Positions 5,160 through 63,359 of a DNA stretch of 64,000 nucleotides are shown piece after piece (within the stretch, counting starts at the first letter, position 1; every line of letters begins with the position of its first letter). A model generated the notes under the pieces. It worked only from the letters and a program-made list of their open reading frames with translations, was not told the DNA's origin and searched no databases. Source of the stretch: an uncultured Candidatus Saccharibacteria bacterium (GTDB lineage Bacteria > Patescibacteriota > UBA1384 > 2-12-FULL-50-11); the NCBI GenBank assembly GCA_964599405.1, contig CAZRED010000001.1:149942-213941 (forward strand), in the 5' to 3' direction. Position numbers and translations under genes: made by a program.

Positions 5160-5180
5160 GCATTGCGTTAAGATGTAGTC

Positions 5181-6776
5181 ATGGCCAAATTACATCGTAC
5201 GGTCTTGATGGGGTTGGGACAAGTAATTCTCGCCCTGTTCTTACTAACAACCGCTTCTCCTGTCAGAGCAGCCGCTCCCATCAATTCATTGGATGTATCT
5301 ATTAACTTGGAAAAGACCGGCCTAGTTACCATCACCCAAGCTATCCAATATGTAACTCCCCAGCAATTAAGCTGGACCCTCTCTTCGCCAGAACGTGGCT
5401 TGAATGTTACCGCCGACGGGAAATTTAGTGAGGTAAAAACCCGTGAACGGAGCGGCAGCACGTTGGTAACGGCCACGACTTTTGCCCGCAATTGGCAGCT
5501 GCAGTACCAGACACCGAGCAGCTTAATTCGCCACAATAACCGCGACCAATTATTTCTGAAAGTTTTCGACCAACCTGGATCGACGATTTATGCGGTTTCG
5601 ATAACGTTCAACCTACCGGGTGTTGTTACCGGTAGCCAACTCACCGGCAATGTCTATGCTATCGGCGGCGTCGAAAACCCCCAGACAACCACCAGCTCCC
5701 CCGACCAACTTCACTACTCCGCCGATTTCGCTGGACCGAGCTCACTTCTGACCGTCAACGCCAATTGGGCGAAAGATGTGCTCGTCCTATCGGCCGTTCA
5801 GGAAGCCCAACTGGCTTTCTACCAGCTTGATGCCGCCCCCTGGCTAGCATTGGGAGTACTGTTGCCACTAGCTAGCCTAATTGTTCTAGCCCGCCTACTT
5901 TTCGCCCAGCGCCGCAGCGAGAGGGTGGTTACAGCCACCAATCCAAAGTTGCCCTCCGCTGCCCCAGCCGTTATCGCTGGCGTACTGGTCCGGAAAAAAA
6001 TCTACCCAGAAGAAATCGCTGCCTTAATTATCGACCTCTGCCAGCGCGGCTACTTACTAATTGTGAAGCGATCGGGAGTGTACTACCTAGTAAGACGCAA
6101 ACCGGCCGACGAAGCCCTCCAAGATTGGGAGCGAAAAATTGTCGATGAATTACTGCCCGTCAACGATCAAACAGGCAGCGAACCAAATTTGCACCAACTG
6201 GGTAGCCAAGCCCTCTACAGCCCGAAAGTCCGCAGCGCCTTCAACAGTATCTACCAAATCGTCACTAACCAAGGCTACTTCACCGAAAACCCCCACCAAA
6301 CCCGAATTCAGTACAAGCTTTTCGCCCTTTTTCTCTATTTCGCTAGTGCTGCCGGGATGGTTTGGTTGGCCGTTTCCGCTGGCAGCCCGTACTTGATTTT
6401 ACCGCTGGCTGGAACGATTATCATTTCACAGCTGATTATTAGAACTTCGCCGCAGATTGCTCACTACAGCGCTAAGGGGATTGCGGAGCGGCAAAAGTGG
6501 CTGGAGTTTGCCAACTTTTTAGCTGAGACTAAACCGTTACCTTTTGAGATGGCTCGCAACCATACATTTGAAAAATACTTGCCGTACGCGGTCGCCCTAG
6601 AAAAAACCTTACCGTGGGCCAAGCGCTTTGACTACTCCAGCATCACCATTTTGAAACCGGACTGGTTTGTGGCCTACGAAGACAGCTCAACCGTTGAGTT
6701 CGCTAAAGAAATTACGGCTTTCGTCAACGAAATATCAACTGGTATTACGACGCTGCGGGGACCGTTAGTGGGCTGA
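5181..6776 (+). CDS. DUF2207-like membrane protein (signal peptide, extracellular domain, C-terminal TM bundle)
   Basis: 531 aa. N-terminal signal, a TM helix near residue 220 and two or three helices near residue 380 give a DUF2207-type topology. Confidence 0.45.
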   Translation: MAKLHRTVLMGLGQVILALFLLTTASPVRAAAPINSLDVSINLEKTGLVTITQAIQYVTPQQLSWTLSSPERGLNVTADGKFSEVKTRERSGSTLVTATTFARNWQLQYQTPSSLIRHNNRDQLFLKVFDQPGSTIYAVSITFNLPGVVTGSQLTGNVYAIGGVENPQTTTSSPDQLHYSADFAGPSSLLTVNANWAKDVLVLSAVQEAQLAFYQLDAAPWLALGVLLPLASLIVLARLLFAQRRSERVVTATNPKLPSAAPAVIAGVLVRKKIYPEEIAALIIDLCQRGYLLIVKRSGVYYLVRRKPADEALQDWERKIVDELLPVNDQTGSEPNLHQLGSQALYSPKVRSAFNSIYQIVTNQGYFTENPHQTRIQYKLFALFLYFASAAGMVWLAVSAGSPYLILPLAGTIIISQLIIRTSPQIAHYSAKGIAERQKWLEFANFLAETKPLPFEMARNHTFEKYLPYAVALEKTLPWAKRFDYSSITILKPDWFVAYEDSSTVEFAKEITAFVNEISTGITTLRGPLVG

Positions 6777-9394: not shown

Positions 9395-10114
9395 ATGAAC
9401 AATCCCATGAGTCACCAGGTAAAAATTCACGGCGCCCAAACCAGCATTTTGCGCGAGCTGTTGTTTAAGCCGGTGATGGGTTATGCCGAGCTACAGAAGC
9501 CCACTGGCCTAACCAGCGACCACTTCAACTTTCACATCAAAAGGCTTGTTGATGTTGGATTTGTAGAAAAATCCAAAAACGGTCAGTACAAATTAACGTC
9601 GCGTGGCAAAGAATACGCCAATAAGCTCGATACCGACCAAAACACCATCGAACAACAACCGAAAACTACGGTAATCTTAGCGATCACCCGTCAGCGCCAG
9701 GGCGAAACCGAATACCTTTTCCAAAAGCGGTTGAAGCATCCGTATTACGGCTATTGGGGCTTCCCCACCGGAAAAATCCGCTGGGGGGAAACGGTTTTAG
9801 AGACCGCGGCGCGCGAGCTAAAAGAAGAGACCGGACTGGAAGCCAAACACGCCTTCAAAGGAATCTACCACGAGCACGTCTACCAAGAAGAGTCGGGAGA
9901 GCTGCTGGAAGATAAATTATTCTTTATTGTCAGCTGCACCGATACAACGGGGGACTTGATCGAAGAGTTTGAGGGCGGCAAGAACGCCTGGGTTACCCTG
10001 AAAGAAATGGAGACAAAAAAAGTTTTTAACAGCTACCAGCTGGAGCTAGAAGTCGCCCAGGGCAAGCACCGCTTCGTTGAACAAATCCACAAATACTCCA
10101 AAGAGGAGTTTTAA
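9395..10114 (+). CDS. Winged-helix DNA-binding domain fused to a NUDIX hydrolase
   Basis: N-terminal HTH-like region. Nudix box GFPTGKIRWGETVLETAARELKEETGL is present. Confidence 0.7.
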   Translation: MNNPMSHQVKIHGAQTSILRELLFKPVMGYAELQKPTGLTSDHFNFHIKRLVDVGFVEKSKNGQYKLTSRGKEYANKLDTDQNTIEQQPKTTVILAITRQRQGETEYLFQKRLKHPYYGYWGFPTGKIRWGETVLETAARELKEETGLEAKHAFKGIYHEHVYQEESGELLEDKLFFIVSCTDTTGDLIEEFEGGKNAWVTLKEMETKKVFNSYQLELEVAQGKHRFVEQIHKYSKEEF

Positions 10115-13083: not shown

Positions 13084-13266
13084 GGGTCCGTAGCTCAGTG
13101 GCAGTAGCAATCGGCTTAACAGTCAGGCCAGGTGGGAGTGTAGCTCAGCGGTTAGAGCGCCAAGCTTATACCTTGGTGGTCCATGGTTCGAATCCATGCA
13201 CTCCCACCTGGCAGGACTGTATGTAATATATCCGATCGGTCGGAGGTTCGATCCCTCCCGGACCCA
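13084..13266 (+). tRNA. Interrupted (split) class-I tRNA gene: 5' half 13084-13114 and 3' half 13232-13266, separated by a 117-nt insert in the anticodon loop
   Basis: Acceptor GGGTCCG (13084-90) pairs 7/7 with CGGACCC (13259-65). D-arm GCTC-AGTGGCAG-TAGC. Anticodon stem ATCGG (13110-14) pairs 5/5 with CCGAT (13232-36). Variable CGGTC. T-arm GGAGG-TTCGATC-CCTCC. The insert 13115-13231 contains a whole tRNA. Confidence 0.45.
13134..13206 (+). tRNA. tRNA-Ile with UAU anticodon, nested inside the split tRNA
   Basis: Acceptor GGGAGTG/CACTCCC, D-arm GCTC-AGCGGTT-AGAGC, anticodon arm CCAAG-CTTATAC-CTTGG (anticodon TAT), T-arm CATGG-TTCGAAT-CCATG, discriminator A. Confidence 0.75.
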
Positions 13267-19437: not shown

Positions 19438-19509
19438 TCCGGAGTAGCTCAGCGGTAGAGCGACGCCCTGTTAAGGCGCTGGCCGTCGGTTCGAATCCGA
19501 CCTCCGGAG
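19438..19509 (+). tRNA. tRNA-Asn (GUU)
   Basis: Acceptor TCCGGAG/CTCCGGA, D-arm GCTC-AGCGGT-AGAGC, anticodon loop CTGTTAA, T-arm GTCGG-TTCGAAT-CCGAC. Confidence 0.9.
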
Positions 19510-19514
19510 CAAAA

Positions 19515-19550: not shown

Positions 19551-19687
19551 GTTTGGGAGGAGATTGAACCGACCAGCCGAAGGCTTGTCGGTGCGGTTCC
19601 GAGCGAGTACATTGCGAGCGAGGATCAAGGAGCGAAGCGACGCTTGGTCTCCGACCTCCGGAGCAGCATGGACGACGTTAGAACCTA

Positions 19688-19727
19688 ACTCGACATTTTA
19701 AGGTTGGGGGGTACAATCCTGAATATG
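19688..19727 (+). promoter_or_regulatory. Conserved promoter cassette copy P1 (CTCGACATT...TACAAT)
   Basis: TCGACA 19690-95, 16-nt spacer, TACAAT 19712-17. ATG of a 14-codon mini-ORF lies 7 nt downstream. The DUF305 gene follows, with its own SD. Confidence 0.55.
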
Positions 19728-19850
19728 AACCTTACAACACGCGGAGCGGAGGAAGTAAAAGGAGGTTAACTGTCGGCGAGCAAATGGCGACAAGGGAGAC
19801 CATAAAGAAACGATAAATTTCAGCCGTTTGGCTGATAAATAGGAGGTAAA

Positions 19851-20450
19851 ATGGAAAATAAGAGTAACTTATTCATCGCCGGTGTGTTCTTGGTAGGAAT
19901 AATTGCCGGGGTATTACTTGCTCCAGTCGTAAAAAATACTACGGGAATGATGAGCAGAGATGGTAGCACGCAACAGGAGCGAATGGACAAAATGTTCATT
20001 GAACAGATGGTCCCACATCACGAAGACGCGATTGCAATGGCTAAGATTGCCCAAGAAAAAGCTACACGACCGGAGATTAAACAGTTAGCAGCTGATATTA
20101 TTTCTAGTCAGTCGACGGAAATAGAACAAATGAAGAAGTGGTATAAAGATTGGTTTGGGAGTGATGTATCTAGCGTTGACCATACCGCAATGCATCACGG
20201 CGGTGGAATGATGCCAGGCAGTATGATGTCTGAAACTGATATTACCCGACTCACGACAGCCAATCCATTTGAGAAAGAATTTATTCGGCAGATGATACCC
20301 CATCATCAAATGGCAGTAATGATGGCCGAGATGCTAAAAACTACAACTGACCGAGCCGAAATGAAAAAACTGGCCGAAGATGTTATTACGGCCCAAACCG
20401 CTGAGATTGAAAAAATGAGAGCGTGGGATAAGGCTTGGTATGGGGCCTAA
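19851..20450 (+). CDS. DUF305 family four-helix-bundle metal-binding protein
   Basis: Two repeats of the DUF305 motif (QMVPHHEDAIAMAKIA and QMIPHHQMAVMMAEML). N-terminal TM/signal. Confidence 0.8.
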   Translation: MENKSNLFIAGVFLVGIIAGVLLAPVVKNTTGMMSRDGSTQQERMDKMFIEQMVPHHEDAIAMAKIAQEKATRPEIKQLAADIISSQSTEIEQMKKWYKDWFGSDVSSVDHTAMHHGGGMMPGSMMSETDITRLTTANPFEKEFIRQMIPHHQMAVMMAEMLKTTTDRAEMKKLAEDVITAQTAEIEKMRAWDKAWYGA

Positions 20451-20493
20451 TAACGAAAGGTTCTAGACCGGAGTAGCGAGCGAAATAATACCC

Positions 20494-20862
20494 ATGAAAC
20501 AGGACGATAAGACAAAACAACGGATTCACACAATGAGAGTCGGCGGCGTCTATCCTTTCTATGTTGCTAAAGCACAGAAAAAAGGACGCACAAAAGCAGA
20601 GGTTGATGAAGCCATCTGTTGGCTAACGGGCTATAGCCAGAAAGAGCTGGAAGCCGAGCTGGCCAAAGAAACCAACTTTGAAGCTTTCTTTAAGAAAGCG
20701 CCGAAGCTGAACCCAGCCCGAAAATTAATTACCGGCCTAATCTGCGGTGTGCGGGTGGAAGAGATCGAAGATCCAATAATACGGGCTGTTCGTCAGCTAG
20801 ATAAGCTGATCGACGAGTTAGCCAAAGGCAGAGCGATGGAGAATATTCTGCGTAAACAATAA
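20494..20862 (+). CDS. DUF2200 family protein
   Basis: [40 protein letters not shown] matches the DUF2200 consensus closely. Confidence 0.75.
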
Positions 20863-20875
20863 GCTCTCATCGAAT

Positions 20876-20912
20876 ACTCGACATTTCCAGGTTCGGCGGT
20901 ACAATTCGGATA
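20876..20912 (+). promoter_or_regulatory. Conserved promoter cassette copy P2 (leaderless)
   Basis: TCGACA 20878-83, 16-nt spacer, TACAAT 20900-05, ATG at 20913 (7 nt after the -10). Confidence 0.6.
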
Positions 20913-21470
20913 ATGAATTTAGAAAAAAGCTTTCGTGAGTTCATCGAAAGCGACGCACTTTATCAGGAAGCTTTTAGAATCGTTCAGCACAACTCATCGG
21001 GAAAAATCTGGCTAATTGGCGGGTACCTATCCCGTAACCTGGCAAACATCCTGTATGGCACCGGGGAACCAGACAAGGGCGATATTGATTTTATTGTTGA
21101 AAAGCTCAACCCGTATTTCTTTGCTTCCGACTGGGGGATACGGATAAACAGTTACGGTAATCCCAAGTTAAGAAAAGGTGCGGTGCGAATGGACGTAGTT
21201 CCGCTAGACAATGTCCTTTCCATTCGGCAGCGAAGCCTTGAGCCAACAATCGAAAACTACCTTACAGGCGTTCCCCTCACATTTCAGTCAATCGCTTATG
21301 ACACAACCAGTGGCAAAATAATTGGCGGGATTGGCAAACACTCACTGAAGACTAGAACTATCGGTATTAATAGCCCCGAGTTGATTGCCAGCACAGCCCG
21401 GAAAAAAGGCATGACTATAGACGAGTATGTAGACAAGTACTGTCGCAGCTTCGGTTTCCGAAAAGTTTAG
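20913..21470 (+). CDS. Minimal nucleotidyltransferase-fold protein (putative)
   Basis: IGGYLSRNL...GDIDFIV resembles the GS/GG...D-x-D motif of NTase-fold proteins. Confidence 0.45.
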   Translation: MNLEKSFREFIESDALYQEAFRIVQHNSSGKIWLIGGYLSRNLANILYGTGEPDKGDIDFIVEKLNPYFFASDWGIRINSYGNPKLRKGAVRMDVVPLDNVLSIRQRSLEPTIENYLTGVPLTFQSIAYDTTSGKIIGGIGKHSLKTRTIGINSPELIASTARKKGMTIDEYVDKYCRSFGFRKV

Positions 21471-21506
21471 CTCGACATTCCCAGGTTCGGGAGTAGAATC
21501 TAAGGA
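21471..21506 (+). promoter_or_regulatory. Conserved promoter cassette copy P3 (leaderless)
   Basis: TCGACA 21472-77, 16-nt spacer, TAGAAT 21494-99, ATG at 21507. Confidence 0.6.
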
Positions 21507-22154
21507 ATGAAGCGAAGCGAGCTACTTGTAGATATTGGTCTTGTGGTATTGGCTATAATCTCTACCGGTCTATTAGTCTTCGAGATTACCCACGATGTAA
21601 CCGCTTCAACAAGCACGCTAATAAGCCGGGTGGATATAGTTATTGCACTAATTTTCCTCGCAGATTTCATATACGGTTTCTCGCAAGCAAAGAATAAAAG
21701 TCAGTTTTTTAGTAAGCGTTGGTACGAATTACTTGCTTCTATACCGATTACGTCAACTACAACTCAGATTCTAAGAAGTTTGCGGTTGTTGAGGGTACTC
21801 CGAATCATCCGTTTGATGGCACGAATGAGGCGGGTAGCCGATTTTTACCTCGACGGTCCAAAGTTTCAGATTCTATCAATCGTGCTGACAGTATTTACTC
21901 TTGTATTTATGGGGGCAGTCGCCTTCCACAGTTATGAATTCGGAATAAATCAGAATGTTCACAACCTCTTCGACAGTTTCTGGTGGGCAATGGTTACGGT
22001 TACGACCATTGGTTATGGCGATATTTATCCGGTCACAACTGCGGGAAGGGTTGTTGCAATGATATTAATGGTTATCGGTATAGGAACTCTGGGAACGGTT
22101 ATCGGATCCGTGGCTACCCAATTCCTAAAAGCCGAAGAAGAATTCAAAAGGTAG
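21507..22154 (+). CDS. Voltage-gated potassium channel (Kv-like)
   Basis: Selectivity filter TTIGYGD. S4-type arginine repeat RSLRLLRVLRIIRLMARMRR. Confidence 0.75.
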   Translation: MKRSELLVDIGLVVLAIISTGLLVFEITHDVTASTSTLISRVDIVIALIFLADFIYGFSQAKNKSQFFSKRWYELLASIPITSTTTQILRSLRLLRVLRIIRLMARMRRVADFYLDGPKFQILSIVLTVFTLVFMGAVAFHSYEFGINQNVHNLFDSFWWAMVTVTTIGYGDIYPVTTAGRVVAMILMVIGIGTLGTVIGSVATQFLKAEEEFKR

Positions 22155-22157
22155 CAG

Positions 22158-22190
22158 GCTCGACATTCCCAGGTTCACACACCTGTCAAA
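22158..22190 (+). promoter_or_regulatory. Degenerate copy (P4) of the cassette -35 block, lacking a recognisable -10
   Basis: CTCGACATTCCCAGGTTC is present 5 nt after the K-channel stop codon, but no TAnAAT follows at 16-17 nt. A 10-bp-stem hairpin lies at 22213-22238. Confidence 0.3.
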
Positions 22191-22259
22191 CCTAATGACG
22201 CCTGGGAACAACCCAGCCGGGTGGGTTGTTCGTGATACAGGCGGGAACAGGAGGAACCA

Positions 22260-22586
22260 CTATGTGCGCGTGCTCTTTAAGCGTTTGTCGAGAATCCCCT
22301 GGATTGACGGACTAATCTTTTTGTCCGGGCGGTGGATACAACCTACCCAGCAACAAGGCCGGCGCTTGCCTTCGAGTAGTTCTTCGCCGGTTCTTTTAAT
22401 ACGGCGGCTCCGGGTTTCAATCTGTTTGGCATTCTCCACCCAGCAGATGAACTCGTTGCGAGCGAGCACAGTTATGTCTTCCCATAGCTTAAGAACTTTT
22501 GGGTCCGCAACCAGCGCTTTGCGCAGATCCGCTGGCATTTTATGTACTGTGCCGCCAGAAATTTCTTTTGCAACCATTGGATACAT
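22260..22586 (-). CDS. YdeI/OmpD-associated (DUF1801-related) family protein
   Basis: 108 aa with a coherent sequence (KMPADLRKALVADPKVLKLWEDITVLARNEFICWVENAKQIETRSRRI). The overlapping plus-strand ORF 22195-22596 is low-complexity. Confidence 0.5.
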   Translation of the reverse strand: MYPMVAKEISGGTVHKMPADLRKALVADPKVLKLWEDITVLARNEFICWVENAKQIETRSRRIKRTGEELLEGKRRPCCWVGCIHRPDKKISPSIQGILDKRLKSTRT

Positions 22587-22601
22587 TTTACATTAACATG
22601 C

Positions 22602-22636
22602 CTCGACATTTCTAGGTTCAACGGTAGAATTGAGCA
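22602..22636 (+). promoter_or_regulatory. Conserved promoter cassette copy P5 (leaderless)
   Basis: TCGACA 22603-08, 16-nt spacer, TAGAAT 22625-30, ATG at 22637. Confidence 0.6.
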
Positions 22637-22909
22637 ATGGATCTACAATTGCTGTTCAGTATTTTGGTTACAATCTTCTCGCTGGGCCTAACACTTATCG
22701 GCATCCCAGCACAAATTATGAAAAACTATCGGGAAAAGCGTTCTGGCCAACCATTAATCACTATTGTAATTGCTATGGGATTTTACGCGTCTTCAATCGT
22801 CCTTTTTGCCTTGACCAAAACATACCTCCCACTGGCCGCTTTCTGCATCGGTTTCGTGATGTGGGGGATAACCTTAGGACAGTACTTGACGTATAACCGG
22901 AAACGTTAG
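22637..22909 (+). CDS. 3-TM PQ-loop/SemiSWEET-like small membrane protein
   Basis: 90 aa with three helices. Helix 1 is followed by GIPAQIMKNYREKRSGQ, resembling the PQ-loop motif. Confidence 0.4.
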   Translation: MDLQLLFSILVTIFSLGLTLIGIPAQIMKNYREKRSGQPLITIVIAMGFYASSIVLFALTKTYLPLAAFCIGFVMWGITLGQYLTYNRKR

Positions 22910-22954
22910 CTCGACATTTTCAGATTCAAGATACGAGTTTTGGACTGCTATAAT
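22910..22954 (+). promoter_or_regulatory. Cassette -35 block (P6) followed by an extended -10 (TGcTATAAT)
   Basis: CTCGACATTTTCAGATTC starts 1 nt after the stop codon. TATAAT at 22949-54 is preceded by TGC. Confidence 0.4.
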
Positions 22955-22996
22955 ACGGGCGTTATGAACCTTATTCTTATCGGAGGTGACTAGAGT

Positions 22997-23188
22997 TTGG
23001 ACGAGAGTGATCGTTACTGCGTGAAGTGTGGCCGCCCCATTGAAGAATGCATGGGGTTTGTGAAAGCCGGCGATGTCCTGGAGTTGATTCTGGGGACGGG
23101 CACGAGACTTCGCGAACTTTGCGGAGTTTGCATAATCCTCTGGAGATGGACCAGAAAAGACACCCTCGTCATGCGAAAAGCTGCCTGA
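22997..23188 (+). CDS. Small zinc-ribbon-like protein (TTG start)
   Basis: SD GGAGGTGA lies 6 nt upstream. CVKCGRP...CGVC gives two CxxC pairs. Confidence 0.35.
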   Translation: MDESDRYCVKCGRPIEECMGFVKAGDVLELILGTGTRLRELCGVCIILWRWTRKDTLVMRKAA

Positions 23189-23195
23189 CCAAGCC

Positions 23196-23236
23196 AAAAG
23201 AGACTTACTACCAAAACAGTTGGTCTCTTTTTTTAT
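23196..23236 (+). terminator. Rho-independent terminator
   Basis: AAAGAGAC...GTCTCTTT stem followed by TTTTTTT. Confidence 0.55.
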
Positions 23237-23270
23237 ACTCGACATTATCGGGTTCGGAGGTATGATCAAG
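23237..23270 (+). promoter_or_regulatory. Conserved promoter cassette copy P7
   Basis: TCGACA 23239-44, 16-nt spacer, TATGAT 23261-66, then SD AAGGAG and ATG at 23284. Confidence 0.6.
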
Positions 23271-23283
23271 AAAAGGAGAGAGA

Positions 23284-23412
23284 ATGATGGATTGGACGTG
23301 GGGCCAAGGGATGATGAGTGGAATGGGTTTTTGGGGAGCGATCTTCGGTATTGTTATCCTGATTAACCTAGTTTTTCTCGCTGTCTGGCTCTGGAAACAA
23401 ATTAGTAAGTAG
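23284..23412 (+). CDS. 42-aa Met-rich single-TM micro-protein, co-transcribed with the P1B ATPase
   Basis: MMDWTWGQGMMSGMGFWGAIFGIVILINLVFLAVWLWKQISK. SD AAGGAG lies 6 nt upstream. Stop is 4 nt before the ATPase ATG. Not in the ORF track because it is short. Confidence 0.4.
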   Translation: MMDWTWGQGMMSGMGFWGAIFGIVILINLVFLAVWLWKQISK

Positions 23413-23416
23413 CTCA

Positions 23417-25384
23417 ATGGATCACCACGGTCATACTAGCGGCCATCATTCGATGGGCGCTGATGATGCTCAAATGTTTTTGCGGCGATTTTGGTACACA
23501 ACATTTCTGCTAGTTCCGCTCCTGTTGGTTAGCAACGTCGGGATAAAGTTTTTTGGTGTGCCGGACTTTGGCGGCCGTGAATTTGTTGGCTTTGCCATTT
23601 CCACGGTAATCTTTTACTTTTCTTGGATATTCTTTGAGCACGCTACCCACGAGATAAAGAGCCGAAGTTACGGGATGATGACACTGGTTTCGGTAGCGGT
23701 GGCCAGCGGCTTTTTGTTTTCAGTGGCTTCCACTTTTATTCCGTCGTTTGGCGGGGTGGAATTTTTCCTGGAAATCTCAACCTTAATCTGGGTACTGCTG
23801 TTTGGCCACTATTTGGAGGCGAAATCAACGGCGACCGCCGGTTCGGCCTTGCAAGAAGTGGCCAAATTACTGCCAAAAGTTGTCCACCTGCTCGACGGCG
23901 AGCAAACCACAGACGTGCCGGTGGAGCAGATTAAAGCTGGTGACATGATTGTGGTTAAGCCAGGCGAAAAGTTACCGGCCGACGGCACAATTTTGGAAGG
24001 GGCGGCCAATATGGACGAAGCGCTAGTAACTGGCGAGTCAAAACCAATCAGTAAAAAAACGGGGGACGCGGTGATTGCCGGATCAATTTGTTTGGACGGT
24101 TCGCTCAAAATCAGAATTGAAAAAACTGGCCTGGATTCGACGGTTGGTCATATTCAACAGCTAGTTGAGCAGGCCCAAACAACCAAGCCACAACTGCAAC
24201 ATATCGCCGACCGGGTGGCCTCGTTGTTGACCTTTGTGGCGCTGGGTACGGCAATTTTGACGGTGCTGATTTGGACGTTGGTGAGTGGCCAGACGTTTGC
24301 ATTTGCCCTGACGATGGCCGTGACGGTGCTGGTGATTGCTTGCCCGCACGCCCTGGGATTAGCAATTCCAACCGTTTCTACTACCGCCACTTCCTTGGCA
24401 CTAAAGCACGGCATTTTCTTAAAATCACTTAAAAAATTAGAGGCGGCCCGAAATATCAGCATCGTTGCCTTCGACAAAACCGGGACACTGACCGAAGGCC
24501 ATCCTGGGGTTACTGATGTGGTGGGCGAGAACCGTGAGGAGGCTTTGCGAGTTGCCGCGGCGTTAGAAGCGGGCTCCAGCCACCCGCTCGCCCAGGCAAT
24601 TATTGCCGAGGCTAAGGGAGCTAAGGCGAAAGTAACCGAATTTAAAAACCTGGCCGGGCGGGGCGTTAGCGGCACAGTTGAAGGCAATAAGTATTGGCTG
24701 GGCAACACAGAGATTCTGGAACAAGTTGATTTGAGCGAACAGAAAAATGATTTCGAGCGATTAAGCGCCGAGGGCAAAACAGTGGTGATACTACGCGATA
24801 AAACCCAGGTGCTTGGTCTAATCGCCGTTGCCGACAAAGTTCGTCCGGAGTCCAAAGAGGCGGTCAAACAACTGCACAACATTGGCGTGAAAGTGGCGAT
24901 GATTACCGGCGATAACGAAGGCGTGGCCAAAACCGTCGCCGGAGAATTGGGAATCGATACGTACTTTGCACAGGTTTTGCCAGAGGACAAATACAAAAAA
25001 ATTAAAGAACTTCAGGACAAGGGCGAGCAAGTGATGATGGTCGGGGACGGGGTCAATGATGCCCCGGCCTTGATTCAGGCAAACGTTGGGGTAGCAATCG
25101 GTGCCGGAACGGATGTGACGGTGGAAGCTGGCGATATTATTTTAACCAAGAACAACCCTGCTGATATCCCCAAGCTATTAATATTAAGTAAAAAAGTTTA
25201 CGGCAAAATGATTCAAAACTTGGTCTGGGCCGTTGGCTACAACGTTATAGCGATCCCCGCTGCCGCTGGGGCGTTTGCGAGCTTCGGTTTATTTTTGCGC
25301 CCGGATGTCGGAGCGTTTCTGATGGCGATGTCGTCGGTGGTGGTGGTAATTAACGCCCTGCAATTAAAGAGAGTGAAATTGTAG
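23417..25384 (+). CDS. copB: P1B-type heavy-metal ATPase, CopB-like (CPH motif, His-rich N-terminus, no HMA domain)
   Basis: N-terminal MDHHGHTSGHHSMG. TM6 CPH (IACPHALG). DKTGTLT phosphorylation site, GDGVNDAP, HP motif. Confidence 0.9.
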   Translation: MDHHGHTSGHHSMGADDAQMFLRRFWYTTFLLVPLLLVSNVGIKFFGVPDFGGREFVGFAISTVIFYFSWIFFEHATHEIKSRSYGMMTLVSVAVASGFLFSVASTFIPSFGGVEFFLEISTLIWVLLFGHYLEAKSTATAGSALQEVAKLLPKVVHLLDGEQTTDVPVEQIKAGDMIVVKPGEKLPADGTILEGAANMDEALVTGESKPISKKTGDAVIAGSICLDGSLKIRIEKTGLDSTVGHIQQLVEQAQTTKPQLQHIADRVASLLTFVALGTAILTVLIWTLVSGQTFAFALTMAVTVLVIACPHALGLAIPTVSTTATSLALKHGIFLKSLKKLEAARNISIVAFDKTGTLTEGHPGVTDVVGENREEALRVAAALEAGSSHPLAQAIIAEAKGAKAKVTEFKNLAGRGVSGTVEGNKYWLGNTEILEQVDLSEQKNDFERLSAEGKTVVILRDKTQVLGLIAVADKVRPESKEAVKQLHNIGVKVAMITGDNEGVAKTVAGELGIDTYFAQVLPEDKYKKIKELQDKGEQVMMVGDGVNDAPALIQANVGVAIGAGTDVTVEAGDIILTKNNPADIPKLLILSKKVYGKMIQNLVWAVGYNVIAIPAAAGAFASFGLFLRPDVGAFLMAMSSVVVVINALQLKRVKL

Positions 25385-25506
25385 GGTTGTTACTTCGTAA
25401 TCAACGCCCTGCAGCTACGTCGGGTAAAGTTATAGCTCTCGGCACGTTAACCAGAATTTAACAACTCCGTGCTATCCTTAATATAATTAAGGAGCCGAAG
25501 ATAACT

Positions 25507-36089: not shown

Positions 36090-36132
36090 CCATGAATTGT
36101 TTAGAGGACTAAATGAATAGTTTGTTACACAA

Positions 36133-37044
36133 ATGAAAAGACCAAAATTAGTATTAATAATTATTGTGCTGGTTGTTGTAGCCGCGTTGGGGGCCGGAGT
36201 TTATTTCAAGCTGATTCCCCGTCTGTTCCAAAAACCCGTCGCCACAGTAGTCGATCAGCTATTCGGTTGGAAGTTTCCAATTACCAAATTCCCACTGGTT
36301 GGGCCGGATGGCCAACTGGCGTACTCCAACATCCGTGATCCTGGCGGTATACCACAAGGGCTACCAGTTCGCCTGAAAGTTCCCGTTATCGGCGTCGATT
36401 CAGCTATTGAAGACGCGCTGATTACCCCGGACGGAAGAATGGACGTGCCAATCGGCTCGGTTAATGTTGCCTGGTTTTCTCTTGGCCCTCATCCCGGCGA
36501 CGAAGGAAGCGCGGTGATCGGTGGGCATTTTGGGATTAGAGACGGGGTGCCGTTCGTCTTCTACAACTTAGACAAGCTAAAGGTTGGCGACAAGGTATAT
36601 GTGGTCGACGACAAAGACCAGACATTGGCTTTCCAGGTCAGGGAAATTAAATTATTCGATCGAAACGCTGATGCAACGACGGTTTTTACCTCCGATGACG
36701 GGTTGGCTCATCTTAACCTGATTACTTGCGAAGGCATTTGGAACCAAGTTGACGGTTCGTATCCCGAGCGGCGAGTAGTGTTTACCGATGCCATACCATC
36801 AGAAGGGGCAGTAACCGTTACTCCTAAGTCTCCAACGGCGGCGATTCCCACGCCAAACCCAACACCAACTCCGACACCAACTCCGACAACAGAAAATACA
36901 GTATCTACAGCTGCCTTGCTTCAGAGCGTGAATCGGGCAATAAAAAGTGCGGCCAGTACGCCAATCGACGCACTAATCACTTTCACCCTACTAGCTTCGA
37001 TAGCGTATATGGCCACCAAAATCGTCAGGCTCCGCAGAGCATAG
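36133..37044 (+). CDS. Sortase family transpeptidase
   Basis: N-terminal TM. Catalytic His in GGHFG, TLxTC-type motif LNLITCEG, Arg in RRVVFTD. Pro/Thr-rich linker and C-terminal TM. Confidence 0.75.
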   Translation: MKRPKLVLIIIVLVVVAALGAGVYFKLIPRLFQKPVATVVDQLFGWKFPITKFPLVGPDGQLAYSNIRDPGGIPQGLPVRLKVPVIGVDSAIEDALITPDGRMDVPIGSVNVAWFSLGPHPGDEGSAVIGGHFGIRDGVPFVFYNLDKLKVGDKVYVVDDKDQTLAFQVREIKLFDRNADATTVFTSDDGLAHLNLITCEGIWNQVDGSYPERRVVFTDAIPSEGAVTVTPKSPTAAIPTPNPTPTPTPTPTTENTVSTAALLQSVNRAIKSAASTPIDALITFTLLASIAYMATKIVRLRRA

Positions 37045-37060
37045 CGACAGTGTTACCGCA

Positions 37061-38032
37061 CTATTTAGTTGTTAAATTCCACAGAAACTCAATTGCTCGA
37101 TTCTCTGCCCAGTGATGGTCGGGGTCGCCGTTTTTGGACTGACTAATAAATCCACCGTGGCCACCGCCATTGGTGATGATTAACTGGACGTTCGGGTTGT
37201 TGTCTACCCCATCAAACGAGCGGGCGGGGATTACCACATCGTCAGCGCTCTGAATAATCAGGGTGGGAACGGCAATGTTTGGCAAAAACGGCCGGGCGCT
37301 GGCCTTGGCGTGATAGTCGCCGGCATCAATAAAACCGTTATGGGGAGCACAGAACCGATCGTAATCCCCCAGTGTTTTAATGTGCTTAATGGCCTGGATA
37401 TCGTACCTTCCCGGAAAAAGACGGCTCCGAGTGCGCAGCGACGACATCTGCCAATACAACATCAGCCAACGATAGATGGCCGGGGCCTTGTTATCGACAG
37501 AATCAACAGCGGCGGCTAGGTCAATTAGCGGTGAAATTCCGACTGCTCCAATTAGTTGCTTCGGAGCGTCCTGGCCCCATTCGCCAACCGCTTTTAGGCA
37601 GGCGTTGCCGCCGTAGGAAAAACCCATCAGCCCAATTTTCGGCAGTGAATCTTCCCTAATTAACTCTTCAATCACTATGCGCAGATCGGCACTCTGGCCG
37701 GCGTGAGAGAGGGTTTTACTGTATTTCTCACTGCCGCCGCCGTTGCGTAAATTAACCCTGACCACGTTGAAACCGCGGGTGTAGGCTTTGGCGGTGGTGC
37801 CTCGAACGTATGGGCTGATAGTCGAACCATTGAGCCCGGCAATGATAACTAAAGTGGGGGAGGTAGTTTTATCAGCCTGCCAAGAGCATTCCCCAACTAG
37901 TTGAGAGCCATCGGGCAGTTGAAAACGGCGATCTTTCGACGGAAAAAACCTAATTGGCCTGGGCATCAGCACGCTGCCGATTGTTTGGAGATGCGGGCTT
38001 TTTAACCATTTGGCTACGACAAAATTATTCAT
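37061..38032 (-). CDS. Alpha/beta-hydrolase (YheT/ABHD-type)
   Basis: Nucleophile elbow GFSYGGN. Asp and His positions are consistent with the fold. Confidence 0.65.
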   Translation of the reverse strand: MNNFVVAKWLKSPHLQTIGSVLMPRPIRFFPSKDRRFQLPDGSQLVGECSWQADKTTSPTLVIIAGLNGSTISPYVRGTTAKAYTRGFNVVRVNLRNGGGSEKYSKTLSHAGQSADLRIVIEELIREDSLPKIGLMGFSYGGNACLKAVGEWGQDAPKQLIGAVGISPLIDLAAAVDSVDNKAPAIYRWLMLYWQMSSLRTRSRLFPGRYDIQAIKHIKTLGDYDRFCAPHNGFIDAGDYHAKASARPFLPNIAVPTLIIQSADDVVIPARSFDGVDNNPNVQLIITNGGGHGGFISQSKNGDPDHHWAENRAIEFLWNLTTK

Positions 38033-38117
38033 TTAGTCCTCTAAACAGTTCATTTAGTCCCCTAAACAGTTCATTTAGTCCTCTAAACAATTCATTTAGT
38101 CCTCTAAACAATTCATT
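38029..38117. repeat. 21-bp tandem repeat, 4.2 copies (TCATTTAGTCCTCTAAACAGT)
   Basis: Copies at 38029, 38050, 38071 and 38092. The first copy contains the hydrolase start codon and SD on the minus strand. Confidence 0.85.
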
Positions 38118-41925: not shown

Positions 41926-41964
41926 GCTCGACATTTGCGTGTCTGTAGGTAACATCTAGACAAT
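41926..41964 (+). promoter_or_regulatory. Conserved promoter cassette copy P8
   Basis: TCGACA 41928-33, 16-nt spacer, TAACAT 41950-55, ATG at 41965. The cassette starts 3 nt after the sortase stop codon. Confidence 0.5.
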
Positions 41965-42324
41965 ATGCAAAAAGCTCAATCAGTTGACGAATACATCGGC
42001 CGTGAGCCAAAAAATGTTCAAGAAAAACTGAAACAGTTTCGAGAGATTGTTAAGGAAGCCGCGCCAATGGCTGAAGAACGAATCAGCTATGGGATGCCGG
42101 GTTACTTCTACAACGGAGCGCTGGTATATTTCGGCGGATTTAAGAATCATGTAAGCCTGTTCGGAACAGCCTCCGGCGTGATGAAAAAATTCGCCAAAGA
42201 ACTGGATGATTACATTACGTCAAAAGGGACAATTCAGTTTCCGCTCGACCAACCCCTGCCGACTGTCCTCATAAAAAAATTAGTGCACGAACGGGTTGCT
42301 GAAAACGAATTGAAGAAGGGCTGA
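41965..42324 (+). CDS. DUF1801 (YdhG-like) domain protein
   Basis: SVDEYIG...KLKQFREIVKEAAP...ISYGMPGY...FKNHVSLFG matches the DUF1801 pattern. Confidence 0.6.
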   Translation: MQKAQSVDEYIGREPKNVQEKLKQFREIVKEAAPMAEERISYGMPGYFYNGALVYFGGFKNHVSLFGTASGVMKKFAKELDDYITSKGTIQFPLDQPLPTVLIKKLVHERVAENELKKG

Positions 42325-53590: not shown

Positions 53591-54475
53591 TTAAGAAACT
53601 AGGTGCTTAAAGTGGTCTTTCTGCAAGCGCAGCTTTCGAATTGCAGATGTCTCTGCATCAATGACCGTGTGACGACAGATGCTAAGTATCTCTCCAACTT
53701 CATCAAGTGTTCTAACAACGCCATCTTCTATGCCGAAGCGCAATACGATGACGTCTCTCTGTCGAGCTGTGAGTTCCCCCAGTACTGCTTTGAACAGTTC
53801 TTCTCGCACTAACTTATCTTCAACTTCGGACATTTGATTACTAGCTAGTAGTTCAACGATCGTATCATCGCCACTTTCTCCAACAGGTGTGTCAAGAGAA
53901 ATAATAGACTGCCCAGAAGACAACATATTGGCTACTTTTTCCGAACTGTAGCCTAGGTAGTTGGAGATATCGGCTTGCGTCACGGAATGCCGAAGTTTTT
54001 TCTCGAGTGCTTCCACCTCCTTTCGAAAACCGCTCAATGCGGTGGTAACGTGGATTGGAAGACGGATAGTTCTACCTTCATTGAGTAAACCGCGATTTAT
54101 CTTCTGGCGAATCCATAGAGTCGCGTAAGTAGAAAATCGACAGCCTCTGCTATAGTCGTAGCGCTTCGCCGCTTCCATCAGACCTATAAACCCCATCATG
54201 AAAAGGTCGTCCATATCCTGGGAGTAGGCTTTTCTTTCGGCGGCCTTTTTGGCGATCGACAAGACCAGACGAAGGTTGGCCTTGACCAGGTGTCTGTGCG
54301 CTTCAATACTTCCTTCTTCTTTAACCTTTCGGCCAAGATCTAACTCCTGTTCTTTGTTCAGAAGGTGATCTTGCGAAGTTACCCGGACAAGTGCCGAAAT
54401 TGATGACGAGCTTTCCAGCTCGCTCTCTTGTGTTAGTAACGAGTTGGTCGGCTTTTTTCTCATATCAAGTCTCAT
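53591..54475 (-). CDS. Sigma-70 family sigma factor (group 2/3-like, regions 2-4)
   Basis: Region 2 (YSQDMDDLFMMGFIGLMEAAKRYDYSRGCRFSTYATLWIRQ) and region 4 HTH (TLDEVGEILSICRHTV). Confidence 0.75.
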   Translation of the reverse strand: MRLDMRKKPTNSLLTQESELESSSSISALVRVTSQDHLLNKEQELDLGRKVKEEGSIEAHRHLVKANLRLVLSIAKKAAERKAYSQDMDDLFMMGFIGLMEAAKRYDYSRGCRFSTYATLWIRQKINRGLLNEGRTIRLPIHVTTALSGFRKEVEALEKKLRHSVTQADISNYLGYSSEKVANMLSSGQSIISLDTPVGESGDDTIVELLASNQMSEVEDKLVREELFKAVLGELTARQRDVIVLRFGIEDGVVRTLDEVGEILSICRHTVIDAETSAIRKLRLQKDHFKHLVS

Positions 54476-54540: not shown

Positions 54541-55659
54541 TTACGTCAAGTAGTCTTTGAGACGCGAGGCTTCTTCGTGCTTTTTCAGCTTCTGCAGAGC
54601 TTTGGCTTCAATCTGGCGGATACGCTCGCGAGTAACGCCGAACTCTTTACCCACTTCTTCCAGGGTGTGGGTGCGGCCGACGCCCTCTTCTGGCTCCAAG
54701 CCAAAGCGCATTCGGAGAATCTTTTGCTCGCGCGGCGTTAGAATCGCTAGGGATTCCTCGACGTGGCCTTTCATCAACTGGTAAATCGCCTGCTCTTCTG
54801 GGGAGATGGCCGTTTTGTCTTCGATAAACTCGCCCAAACTGGAATCGCCTTCATCGCCGACAGGGGATTCCAGCGAAACGGTTTCTTGGGAAATCTTCAT
54901 GATGTGCTCGAGCTTCTCCAGGTCAACGCCAAGTTTTTTGGCCAGCTCTTCGTGGGTTGGTTCGCGGCCCAGCTCTTGCTGCAGTTCGCGCTGGGTGCGC
55001 ATGTAGCGATTGATGGTTTCCACCATGTGAACTGGGATACGAATCGTTCTGGCTTGGTCGGCAATCGCTCGGGTAATCGCTTGGCGAATCCACCAGGTAG
55101 CGTAAGTCGAGAACTTAAACCCCTTTTTGTAATCAAATTTTTCAACGGCTCGGTGCAAACCCAGGTTGCCTTCTTGAATTAAATCCAGCAGCGACAGACC
55201 CCGGCCGATGTATTTTTTGGCAATCGAAACAACAAGGCGCAGGTTAGCTTCAGCTAAACGGCGCTTAGCGGCTTTATCGCCGCGCTCAATCCGCTTGGCT
55301 AGCGCCACCTCTTCTGGGCCGGTTAGCAATGGGTATTGCCCAATTTCCCGCAGGTACATTCGAACAGAATCTTCGGAAATGCCGGTTAAATCGTCTTCTT
55401 TGATGTTTTTCTTTTTCTCATCAACGCCCGGGATATCCAGTAGGGCTTTTGGTTCGCGCAGCTCCACGCCAATAGCGCTAAGGTAGCGCATATATTCGTC
55501 AATCATCTCCAAATCCTGCTCCGGTTCGGGAAACGACTGGAGAATTTCTTTGTAGGTAACAAAGCCGTGCTGACGGCCTTTTTTAATCATGTACATTAGC
55601 TCATCGGGAAAATCTAACCCGACGTCTTGTTTAACTTTTTTGGGAACCGCTTTTGTCAT
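54541..55659 (-). CDS. rpoD: Primary sigma factor RpoD
   Basis: Region 1.2, region 2.x ([41 protein letters not shown]), region 3 and region 4 ([24 protein letters not shown]). Confidence 0.9.
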
Positions 55660-57921: not shown

Positions 57922-58011
57922 GGAGAGGTCGCCTAGTGGACTATGGCGCCGCCTTGGAAAGGCGGTTTGCTCGCAAGAGTATCGAGGGTTCGAATCCCTC
58001 CCTCTCCGCCA
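57922..58011 (+). tRNA. tRNA-Ser (GGA), class II with long variable arm and encoded CCA
   Basis: Acceptor GGAGAGG/CCTCTCC, anticodon arm CGCC-TTGGAAA-GGCG, 17-nt variable arm, T-arm GAGGG-TTCGAAT-CCCTC, then G-CCA. Confidence 0.85.
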
Positions 58012-61962: not shown

Positions 61963-62003
61963 CTACTAAATTGTACTCCTGAACCTGGGGTCAGTCGAGG
62001 CGG

Positions 62004-63359
62004 CTAGGAATTTAATGTAATCAGTTTTCGATTTTCTATGTAGAGGACGGTGCTTAGGCAGCTAACTAGCTGTCGCTTCTCTTCTTTGGCGCCTTCTTCA
62101 AAGATATGTCTGATGAAATTCTTGTGAAGGGTTTGCTCAACGCCCTCTTCGTCCATTCCCATGACACTGAAGCGCTGGAAAATGGCGAACTTTTCTTTCA
62201 GCCCTGGATTAATTTTGATCTGCTCGAGAGCCGGGTCGTCAAACCTAGATACTAACTCCTCAATTAAGATCTCTTCTCTAATATACGGTTCTGGGCAGTG
62301 AAGATCCCGGGCTTTGGTACAGTGGTAGTAGATATATTTATGCAAGCCTTTCTTGGTTTGCTTAGACTTCTCTTGAGCTGTAATTCCTGATCCACACGTA
62401 GCGCATTTAAATATTTTACTGAAAGTGAACGTCTTAGTACCCGGCCTGGTTTTCGGGTGGATAGCTAACTTCAGCTGAACTTCTTTAAATAGCTCTTTTG
62501 AGATGATTGGTTCGTAGGAACCCTTGTACCATTTGCCGCTACCGACTGGGAACTCAAACGTGCCGCAGTAATACGGATTATTGAGCATCCGATAAATTGA
62601 GCTTAGAGTCAGCAGCTTGCCGGTTCTCGTACGGAAATTAGCCTCGTTTTTATGCCAGGCGAAGATATCTCGCCCTGAAGCGCCAGCCGCTACTTTCTCG
62701 AACATTTCCTTAATAAACGGGGCTATCTTCTGATCTACAAAGACTTTCTTCAGACCCTTACCGGAATAGTGATCATTTAAGTAGCCAAGTGGTGTTAAAT
62801 TCGGGCGAAAACCGAGCTGGCACTTGGTTTTCATGCCTCGTTTGACGTTGACCCCTCGATTATCGTTCTCCAGCTTGGCTTGGGAGCAAAGGATCATCAG
62901 CAAAAATTTGTCATTTGGCGAGTTGGTAAAACTTTGTCCGTGAGTCCGGATTTGGGTCAGGTAACCGTTGTCCATCAGGTCAACAATTGCGCCTAGGTCC
63001 CCGGCATTGCGACTTAATCTATCCGGTGCCCAGCTAAGAATGCCCTGGAACACTCCACATCGAATGTCAGCGATTAATTGGTTGAAAACCGGCCTCTGGC
63101 CAGTCGCCTTGGCCGAATGGCTCTCTTGGCGAATTTCGATCACACTTATCCCTTCTGATTGAGCCTGAACGGTCATTTCCCGGATCTGGGATTCAATTGA
63201 AAGAGCTTGCCGTTCGTCGTCTTCGCTGCTTTTACGGGCATATAAACAGTAGTTAACTCTAACTACGGGCTTATCGGCTACGTTAACAGGATGACCGTTC
63301 TCTTCTTGTGGCAGAGTAATTGGCGATGTGTTGGTTAGCTGAACCTGTTCTTCTTCCAT
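62004..63359 (-). CDS. Large serine recombinase
   Basis: N-terminal resolvase domain with catalytic Ser (YARKSSEDDE...SIESQ), recombinase domain, and C-terminal zinc ribbon (CATCGS...YYHCTKARDLHCPEPY). Confidence 0.8.
   Translation of the reverse strand: MEEEQVQLTNTSPITLPQEENGHPVNVADKPVVRVNYCLYARKSSEDDERQALSIESQIREMTVQAQSEGISVIEIRQESHSAKATGQRPVFNQLIADIRCGVFQGILSWAPDRLSRNAGDLGAIVDLMDNGYLTQIRTHGQSFTNSPNDKFLLMILCSQAKLENDNRGVNVKRGMKTKCQLGFRPNLTPLGYLNDHYSGKGLKKVFVDQKIAPFIKEMFEKVAAGASGRDIFAWHKNEANFRTRTGKLLTLSSIYRMLNNPYYCGTFEFPVGSGKWYKGSYEPIISKELFKEVQLKLAIHPKTRPGTKTFTFSKIFKCATCGSGITAQEKSKQTKKGLHKYIYYHCTKARDLHCPEPYIREEILIEELVSRFDDPALEQIKINPGLKEKFAIFQRFSVMGMDEEGVEQTLHKNFIRHIFEEGAKEEKRQLVSCLSTVLYIENRKLITLNS

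Follow-up and report, generated by a model that had tools for sequence, protein, structure and literature searches.

The locus considered here raises the question of whether a short row of genes, beginning just downstream of a tRNA-Asn gene and carrying a copper-related gene at either end, is a dedicated metal-stress island. The row occupies 19.7-25.4 kb of the window (the whole stretch of DNA analysed, 64,000 nucleotides (nt), or 64 kb) and includes a DUF305 protein, a DUF2200 protein, a K+ channel and a P1B-type ATPase, all of which lie where a preliminary description of the sequence had placed them. That description regarded them as an acquired or co-regulated module whose units share one promoter cassette. 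We consider it likely instead that the region is a flexible, tRNA-Asn-proximal array of self-transcribed units that includes two captured copper genes, in a Berkelbacteria-like member of the candidate phyla radiation (CPR). The array would consist of eight or nine small transcription units, most of them starting with a copy of a short junction module; units would be gained, lost and moved among related genomes with their boundaries at the middle of this module (CCAG/GTTC), and the two copper-defence genes would have landed in the array independently, with loss of the copper sensor. Because unrelated single genes make up the row between these two, the region is better described as a mosaic than as a dedicated metal island. 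A host close to Candidatus Berkelbacteria is indicated by the ATPase, which shares 79% identity with proteins of that group, and by the K+ channel, which clusters with Berkelbacteria proteins at 90%.

The junction module is specific to this lineage and has the consensus (TAG)CTCGACATTTCCAGGTTCGGGAGTACAAT-N7-ATG, approximately 36 nt from stop to start codon. Its core, CTCGACATT, occurs nine times in the window, and seven of these copies lie between 19689 and 23246 (3.6 kb), against 0.38 copies expected by chance per window. An alignment of 20 copies, drawn from the window and seven related loci, yielded the consensus TAGCTCGACATTTCCAGGTTCGGGAGTACAATT-AGAAAATG with a mean column identity of 82%; in this alignment the spacer and the bases that follow the -10 box are conserved as strongly as the hexamers. 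Five copies in the array are complete and promoter-like (TCGACA-16-TAnAAT, at 19690, 20878, 21472, 22603 and 23239), each with a promoter score of 10/12. Across the window and six related loci, 27 of 31 copies have an ATG 6-7 nt past the right half. This is the spacing that a transcription start at the A of the start codon would produce, and we infer that the module acts as a sigma-70-type promoter yielding leaderless mRNA. The core genes of the window lack the module, and other window genes use dissimilar promoters; many further window genes also look leaderless. The earlier statement that all units share the cassette goes slightly too far: beside the five complete copies there are two that consist of a left half only, the DUF2200 gene is preceded by a decayed right half, and the minus-strand OmdA gene has none. 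Solitary half-modules are present at 22159 and 22910 in the window and at 9979 and 18240 in a related array, L088 (loci from other genomes are given L numbers throughout).

The DUF305 protein at the left end of the array clears the NCBIfam CopM metallochaperone model NF049983 in two stretches (110 bits, cutoff 90). It carries two HH motifs and an N-terminal hydrophobic anchor segment, LFIAGVFLVGIIAGVLLAPVV, and an AGGAGG ribosome-binding site of its own precedes the gene. The protein is probably a membrane-anchored extracytoplasmic copper binder. DUF305 is also found near CopB-like pumps in other CPR genomes, and the copper context proposed for it in the preliminary description is supported. 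The closest relative (77% identity, L099) belongs to a CsoR-DUF305-32 aa-63 aa-ATPase operon (aa, amino acids) located beside pilin, coupling-protein and relaxase genes of a type IV secretion system. The two copper genes of the window trace to different operons rather than to one, because the ATPase of the L099 operon has a CPD motif and is 40% identical to the window pump. DNA homology to L099 reaches 46 nt upstream of the DUF305 start and no further; as it stops at the C-terminus of CsoR, of which 12 codons remain (Table 1), csoR was deleted here and replaced by module 1. When csoR was used as a tblastn query, no homologue was found in the 64-kb window, so that the csoR gene expected upstream in a CsoR-regulated cop operon is absent, and the module contains no CsoR-type operator. 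The copper genes would be fragments of CsoR-repressed operons carried on mobile elements in other CPR bacteria, transcribed here from the generic promoter of the array through ordinary leaders with ribosome-binding sites. The leader and ribosome-binding site that follow modules 1 and 7 fit such captured foreign fragments. Given the loss of csoR and the generic promoter, expression of both genes probably does not respond to copper, unless another part of the genome encodes CsoR.

P1B-3 ATPases are recognized by CPH in transmembrane segment (TM) 6, GYN(X)4P in TM7, MSXST in TM8 and a His-rich N-terminus usually of 30-100 residues (PMC5552934). The ATPase at the right end of the array starts with MDHHGHTSGHHSMG, in which five His fall within the first 12 residues (residues 3-11), and contains DKTGT, TGES, GDGVNDAP, ACPHALGLAIP (CPH in TM6 of 8) and, in TM7, N-X5-GYN-X4-P (GYNVIAIP, within NLVWAVGYNVIAIP). 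The HMA domain (PF00403) gave no match, and CxxC is absent from the first 120 residues. The preliminary assignment to the CopB-type P1B-3 pumps is thus supported by CPH, GYN, the His-rich N-terminus and the lack of HMA, three of the four P1B-3 sequence features being present, but not by TM8, which reads P-X6-MAMSS-X5-N, the P1B-1 pattern (MXXSS), rather than MSXST. CPH and GYN are present in all of the 120 best homologues and MSLST in 74 of them, while TM8 of the 12 closest relatives, all from Berkelbacteria, is MAMSS or MAISS. Since the pump and these relatives have this form of TM8 in common, the protein belongs to the CopB (P1B-3) lineage, with a clade-specific TM8 variant. Its best solved-structure relatives are CopA and CopB. 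Homologues at 69-79% identity are found in CsoR-DUF1573-278 aa-ATPase operons, and remoter CPR homologues occupy true metal islands, one of which (L001) contains DsbA, DUF3105, DUF305, a second ATPase, Nramp, DtxR and CsoR, and another (L002) a CDF transporter. The predicted role in exporting cytoplasmic copper is well supported by this context of CsoR operons and metal islands. The 51-nt stub that directly follows the ATPase stop codon is the tail of another ATPase allele and marks a replacement scar; it is itself followed by a decayed left half-module that ends at approximately 25454. The 42-aa membrane peptide upstream of the ATPase was considered as a remnant of the 278-aa protein found upstream of related ATPases and rejected, the alignment scores being within the shuffle range.

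The five or six genes between the copper units are unrelated to metals: profile and PADLOC searches returned no metal-related match among their products, and the PADLOC defence models found nothing among the island proteins and only a weak PsyrA-like match for the SLOG protein in the flank. The 185-aa nucleotidyltransferase belongs to a family with 421 representatives, and its model (predicted local distance difference test score, pLDDT, 96.7) resembles class II CCA/A-adding enzymes in their head and neck (Foldseek E=3e-7), predicting a CCA-enzyme-like nucleotidyltransferase fold. The K+ channel has 94-95% amino-acid identity to copies in other Berkelbacteria arrays with differing neighbours. 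An inverted repeat (22206-22231) lies between the convergent K+ channel and OmdA genes; in L096, L094 and L101 the OmdA unit of the array has the forward orientation. Downstream of the gene for the 63-aa CxxC protein lies a hairpin with a T-run (~23196-23236). This protein has three homologues (61-70% identity); the two whose contigs were examined belong to arrays without an ATPase, where they adjoin an APH kinase or other genes, and we therefore rejected the protein as a partner of the pump.

Table 1. Features of the tRNA-Asn locus and the adjoining array, in window coordinates.
Feature	Position	Strand	Remarks
tRNA-Asn (GTT)	19438..19510	+	ARAGORN; Rfam 69 bits
Direct repeat copy 1, tRNA-Asn 3' end	19496..19511	+	TCCGACCTCCGGAGCA, 16 nt
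Direct repeat copy 2	19650..19665	+	Exact; 24 nt upstream of first module
Junction module 1	19688..19727	+	TCGACA-16-TACAAT-7-ATG; then 126-nt leader, gene non-leaderless
csoR 3'-end remnant	19805..19842	+	12 codons, KETINFSRLADK-stop; L099 CsoR C-terminus EEIIKVSRLADR-stop
DUF305/CopM-like protein	19851..20450	+	PF03713 E=7e-44, 150 bits, cutoff 27
DUF2200 protein	20494..20862	+	E=2.7e-49; only a degenerate right half-module before it (~20459-20493)
Junction module 2	20876..20915	+	ATG 7 nt past -10 box
Nucleotidyltransferase, 185 aa	20913..21470	+	GG...DxD motif; no Pfam match
Junction module 3	21468..21509	+	Exact form, TAG + 36 nt + ATG
Kv-like K+ channel (Ion_trans/Ion_trans_2)	21507..22154	+	TTIGYGD filter
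Left half-module alone	22158..22177	+	GCTCGACATTCCCAGGTTCA; homology to other K+ channel units stops here
YdeI/OmdA-family protein	22260..22586	-	Sole minus-strand unit
Junction module 5	22601..22639	+	
Small membrane protein, 90 aa	22637..22909	+	Three hydrophobic segments, PAQ motif; no family assignment
Left half-module with decayed right half	22907..22954	+	Separate TATAAT box (22949-22954)
63-aa protein	22997..23188	+	Two CxxC pairs; TTG start; GGAGGTGA ribosome-binding site
Junction module 7	23237..23266	+	TCGACA-16-TATGAT; then AAGGAG ribosome-binding site, not leaderless
42-aa membrane peptide	23284..23412	+	Stops 4 nt short of ATPase start
CopB-lineage P1B copper ATPase (predicted)	23417..25384	+	TIGR01511, copper subfamily, 571 bits
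3'-end vestige of another ATPase gene	25385..25435	+	51 nt, GCYFVINALQLRRVKL-stop; directly after ATPase stop codon

Comparison with related genomes showed that the locus is conserved and that its contents are not. The left flank consists of core genes (MurJ, FtsH, DivIC, an ABC exporter, Ddl, YkuD, a beta-CASP nuclease and the SLOG protein), and the succession SLOG, tRNA-Asn, array is shared with L096, L098 and L100, in which the flank is syntenic from ABC through Ddl, YkuD, beta-CASP and SLOG to tRNA-Asn and the array contents differ. In L088, the array starts at the 3' end of tRNA-Asn and comprises at least 25 units in one orientation, each set off from the next by the same module; they include methyltransferases, HAD, NUDIX, GNAT, Vut_1, isochorismatase and thioredoxin/DsbD. 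At three of the L088 junctions, a homologous insert of 22-23 nt is located exactly between CCAG and GGTTC. In the remoter relative L100, the first junction alone is canonical and the remaining ones are ordinary, dissimilar promoters. The K+ channel unit was found with three different sets of neighbours, and homology between its copies extends from GGTTCGGGAG to ...TTYCCAG. At third codon positions its copies share 55-64% identity and the flanking core genes 31-46% (saturated); this lower divergence of the unit points to exchange after the genomes had diverged. Recent gain or loss of units was also considered and rejected, as contigs from five samples are 99.9-100% identical and have no indels.

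Beyond the ATPase, the part of the window that reaches to RmuC-LysS (25507-47800) is dominated by surface proteins: PKD, two paralogous proteins of 241-243 aa, WxL-interacting, a 1914-aa protein, DUF7507, two sortases and an ice-binding-like protein. Homologues of 37061-38032 or of RmuC-LysS follow the array much sooner in L096 and L100, and the flexible zone may extend well beyond 25.4 kb.

A single coherent metal-stress island, integrated as a block at tRNA-Asn and co-regulated by the shared cassette, now seems very unlikely to us. It would account for the presence of DUF305 and a CopB-type pump within a few kb of each other in several CPR loci, for the near-identical promoter copies, for the slightly lower GC of the small units (0.43-0.47 versus ~0.50) and for the position of the stretch beside a tRNA gene with a repeat of its 3' end. 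That repeat, reported in the preliminary description, is indeed an exact 16-nt copy, but the 138 nt enclosed by the pair lie upstream of the array, and the island itself is not flanked: no third copy was found in the window, even with 4 mismatches or 10-mer sub-matches, and hence none lies at the far end. No integrase is encoded in 19.5-25.5 kb. Of four features of tRNA islands, one, adjacency to a tRNA combined with variability among relatives, is present, and two, flanking direct repeats and an integrase, are absent; the fourth, base composition, deviates weakly. The small units have a GC content of 0.43-0.47 and a third-position GC content of 0.44-0.52, with window means of 0.49 and 0.53, whereas the ATPase (0.51 and 0.57) resembles the flanks, and the tetranucleotide distance of the island ranks 37 of 95, being equalled or exceeded by 36 of 94 control windows. 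The preliminary description had named, as grounds for giving up its own view, a composition indistinguishable from the flanks together with a pump that groups with non-copper ATPases; the outcome is mixed, since the ATPase composition is that of the flanks and tetranucleotide usage is no outlier, yet the pump groups with copper pumps. Further against a coherent island, the copper genes come from different source operons, and the K+ channel, OmdA and 63-aa units have other neighbours elsewhere. Finally, the same cassette precedes methyltransferases, hydrolases, NUDIX and similar genes at the tRNA-Asn locus of relatives; as it drives non-metal genes there, the cassette offers no evidence of metal co-regulation. 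The copper sensor gene csoR is lost here. What survives of the proposed acquired module is the flexibility of the region between relatives and not its coherence.

Two other explanations concern the module itself. In one, the array is an integron-like platform in which a dedicated recombinase (one candidate is the large serine recombinase encoded at 62004-63359) cuts the module between CCAG and GTTC, so that single-gene cassettes rebuild a promoter at each junction. Each unit does keep its own right half on the 5' side and its own left half on the 3' side as its neighbours change, and the solitary half-modules, the inserts at CCAG/GGTTC in L088, the co-oriented and functionally mixed arrays, the conservation of the full-length module across genomes whose synonymous sites are saturated and the location of the recombinase gene directly upstream of a module copy at 61998 all favour such a platform. 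We nevertheless judge it unlikely. None of the window proteins matched Phage_integrase and no tyrosine or IntI-type recombinase was found among them, the serine recombinase is absent from L088, L094, L096 and L098, and the 99.9-100% identical contigs show no unit-level polymorphism among the five samples. The module has no dyad symmetry, and single-stranded DNA folds of seven junctions, in short and long forms, were no better than shuffles (z -1.9 to +1.1); an attC-like structure was rejected accordingly, the candidate CATTTCC/GGAAATG helix showing no covariation. A phage origin was rejected, as two module patterns found no match in viral contigs (IMG/VR), and the single canonical junction of L100 is no easier to accommodate. 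In the other explanation, the neighbourhood is ordinary: the cassette is the strong promoter consensus of this lineage, and gene order changes through generic rearrangement or through RecA acting between copies. The match to a sigma-70 promoter, the leaderless appearance of many other window genes, the ordinary promoters of L100 and the length of the copies (36-42 nt, possibly a short RecA homology) would all be expected. Absence of the module from the core genes of the window, where 7 of 9 copies lie within 3.6 kb, would not be, and this explanation has the greatest difficulty with the spacer and the bases after the -10 box, which are as conserved as the hexamers, and with the half-sites, which separate at one position. 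We hold this explanation to be extremely improbable.

Several points weigh against our own account of a flexible array with captured copper genes. The pump has a P1B-1-like TM8; a CsoR or other sensor beyond the 64 kb could regulate the copper genes; a metal role is possible for one of the DUF2200 protein, the small membrane protein and the 63-aa CxxC protein; and the start sites and leaderless status of the transcripts are deduced from spacing. In addition, conservation of the full 16-nt spacer exceeds what a plain promoter needs, and the module therefore probably has a second function that our account does not include. One candidate for this function is that of boundary site in a new Berkelbacteria-like gene-cassette system, in which single genes would pass between tRNA-Asn arrays through breakage and joining at CCAG/GTTC, possibly by the serine recombinase, with each insertion rebuilding leaderless promoters for the incoming and the downstream gene. 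Such a system would correspond in function to an integron, but with self-expressing cassettes and another recombination mechanism; we regard this proposal as speculative and unlikely.

The copper genes themselves add to two families, CopB and CopM, that CPR genomes commonly encode. In Staphylococcus aureus, copXL and copBmco each combine a P1B-3 pump (CopB or CopX) with an extracellular copper-binding protein, are carried on mobile elements and are controlled by CsoR (PMC10233261). The window resembles these systems in having a His-rich, HMA-less CPH pump and a predicted surface-exposed copper-binding protein in variable or mobile DNA, and in that relatives of both genes sit behind csoR. It differs in that the partner is DUF305/CopM-like and not CopL or a multicopper oxidase, that six unrelated genes and ~3 kb separate the two genes, that csoR is deleted and that the promoters are the generic ones of the array. 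CopM of Synechocystis is a DUF305 protein of the periplasm or extracellular space that binds Cu(I) (PMC4335983). The window protein has the DUF305 fold, two repeats and an N-terminal export or anchor segment and passes the CopM model, and it is predicted to bind copper; unlike copM, its gene has neither a CopRS two-component system nor a resistance-nodulation-division (RND) pump nearby, and its host is monoderm-like. The ATPase is similar to CopB of Archaeoglobus fulgidus, Enterococcus hirae and Sphaerobacter in CPH, GYN(X)4P, the His-rich N-terminus, the absence of CxxC/HMA and the DKTGT, TGES and GDGVNDAP motifs, and dissimilar in TM8 (MAMSS) and in its His-rich stretch of ~12 residues, compared with the 30-100 aa quoted for P1B-3 pumps in PMC5552934. 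Specificity of CopB for Cu+ is ascribed to Purohit 2018 where that work is cited in PMC10233261.

The array can likewise be compared with known platforms for accessory genes. Sedentary chromosomal integrons are long, co-oriented arrays of small, mixed genes with a repeated element between them and a content that varies among relatives; they are characterized by IntI, attI and attC. The window and its relatives share the co-oriented small mixed units, the repeated boundary element and the differing content. They are distinguished by a ~36-nt unstructured, promoter-bearing repeat, by units that would each be self-transcribed, and by anchoring at a tRNA gene instead of attI, and both features that define integrons, an adjacent IntI and attC hairpins, are lacking. 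In tRNA-adjacent "additive" flexible islands, accessory genes collect at a fixed hotspot, and the pdif modules of Acinetobacter are bounded by short repeats. The window similarly has a hotspot beside a tRNA that gathers accessory genes between short repeated boundary sites, but it has neither an integrase nor a Xer-type dyad site, and its boundaries double as promoter halves. The module-delimited array is in this sense a variation on the theme of flexible islands and cassette arrays; in the literature on integrons, leaderless promoters and genomic islands in CPR or Berkelbacteria, we found no description of an array delimited in this way. Its context shows how a CPR bacterium with a reduced genome stores and reshuffles accessory functions at a fixed tRNA-Asn hotspot, and how foreign operon fragments would come to be severed from their own regulators, here CsoR, and placed behind a standard start-codon promoter module. 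If the exchange of units is site-specific, the array would represent (i) a new gene-capture system in a major uncultivated lineage, and (ii) a compact natural "promoter plus start" part; if it is not, the module would still offer a testable model of how CPR bacteria recognize promoters and express leaderless mRNAs.

The serine recombinase (Resolvase, Recombinase and Zn_ribbon_recom domains) is the sole recombinase in the window. The module copy at 61998, on the minus strand, leads an overlapping operon that runs to 58188 and encodes Ham1, a cytidine-deaminase-like protein, peptidase S51, an alpha/beta hydrolase, NUDIX, an M15 dipeptidase and a 126-aa protein, ending near tRNA-Ser (57922-58011). 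In L098, two of these genes are separate units after the K+ channel. Large serine recombinases with 46-48% identity to that of the window are encoded within a few kb of the CopB-like pump in L001 and L002. The bPH_2 protein beside the recombinase was compared with the one beside the L099 ATPase, and a relationship was rejected for want of detectable similarity. In 11 Bacteroidota loci, fetched through the ATPase (L036, L046, L048, L049, L051, L052, L061, L069, L070, L073 and L076), a beta-CASP/MBL nuclease homologue with 35-37% identity to that of the window is located 3.5-6.5 kb from a CopB-like pump, upstream of it in 10 and downstream in L036. This proximity may be a coincidence or a conserved association.

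Additional observations were made at the tRNA genes. Rfam found only tRNAs, at the gathering score in the whole window and at E<=1 in 19.4-25.6 kb. The equivalent repeat pair of L096 (~6553-6567 and ~6490-6503) carries the same G-to-A change in both copies and in the tRNA acceptor stem, a concerted change that may reflect recurrent recombination at an att core. The anticodon loop of tRNA-Asn appears to be split by an insert of ~290-450 nt in L098 (~5160-5500), L100 (~6230-6560) and L088 (~640-1120), and ARAGORN did not call these three split genes; the insert appears to resemble a group I intron, and that of L091 holds a GIY-YIG open reading frame. In L098 and L088, the ATG of the first array gene directly follows the 3' end of the tRNA. 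A tRNA-Ile with anticodon TAT (UAU) occupies the same position in three genomes (window 13134-13208, L096 13195-13268 and L100 1351-1424). Most bacteria decode AUA with a lysidine-modified CAU tRNA, and tRNA-Ile(UAU) is unusual.

Elsewhere in the window, a DUF1801 gene (41965-42324) has upstream of it a left half-module on its own, GCTCGACATTTGCGT, together with a -10-like TAACAT box (41926-41967); in L096 and L100 DUF1801 adjoins OmdA as a unit of the array. Two adjacent genes of the sigma-70 family lie on the minus strand (53591-54475 and 54541-55659) with DnaG primase upstream. One encodes a full RpoD-like protein with regions 1.1 and 1.2, and the other a shorter paralogue of 294 aa, a candidate reader of the module promoter. 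A 19-nt motif, GTTTAGAGGACTAAATGAA, is present in one copy at 36099-36117, upstream of a sortase-like gene at 36133, and in four copies in a 21-nt tandem array at 38028-38109 (0 expected), upstream of the alpha/beta hydrolase gene (37061-38032) and overlapping its start codon.

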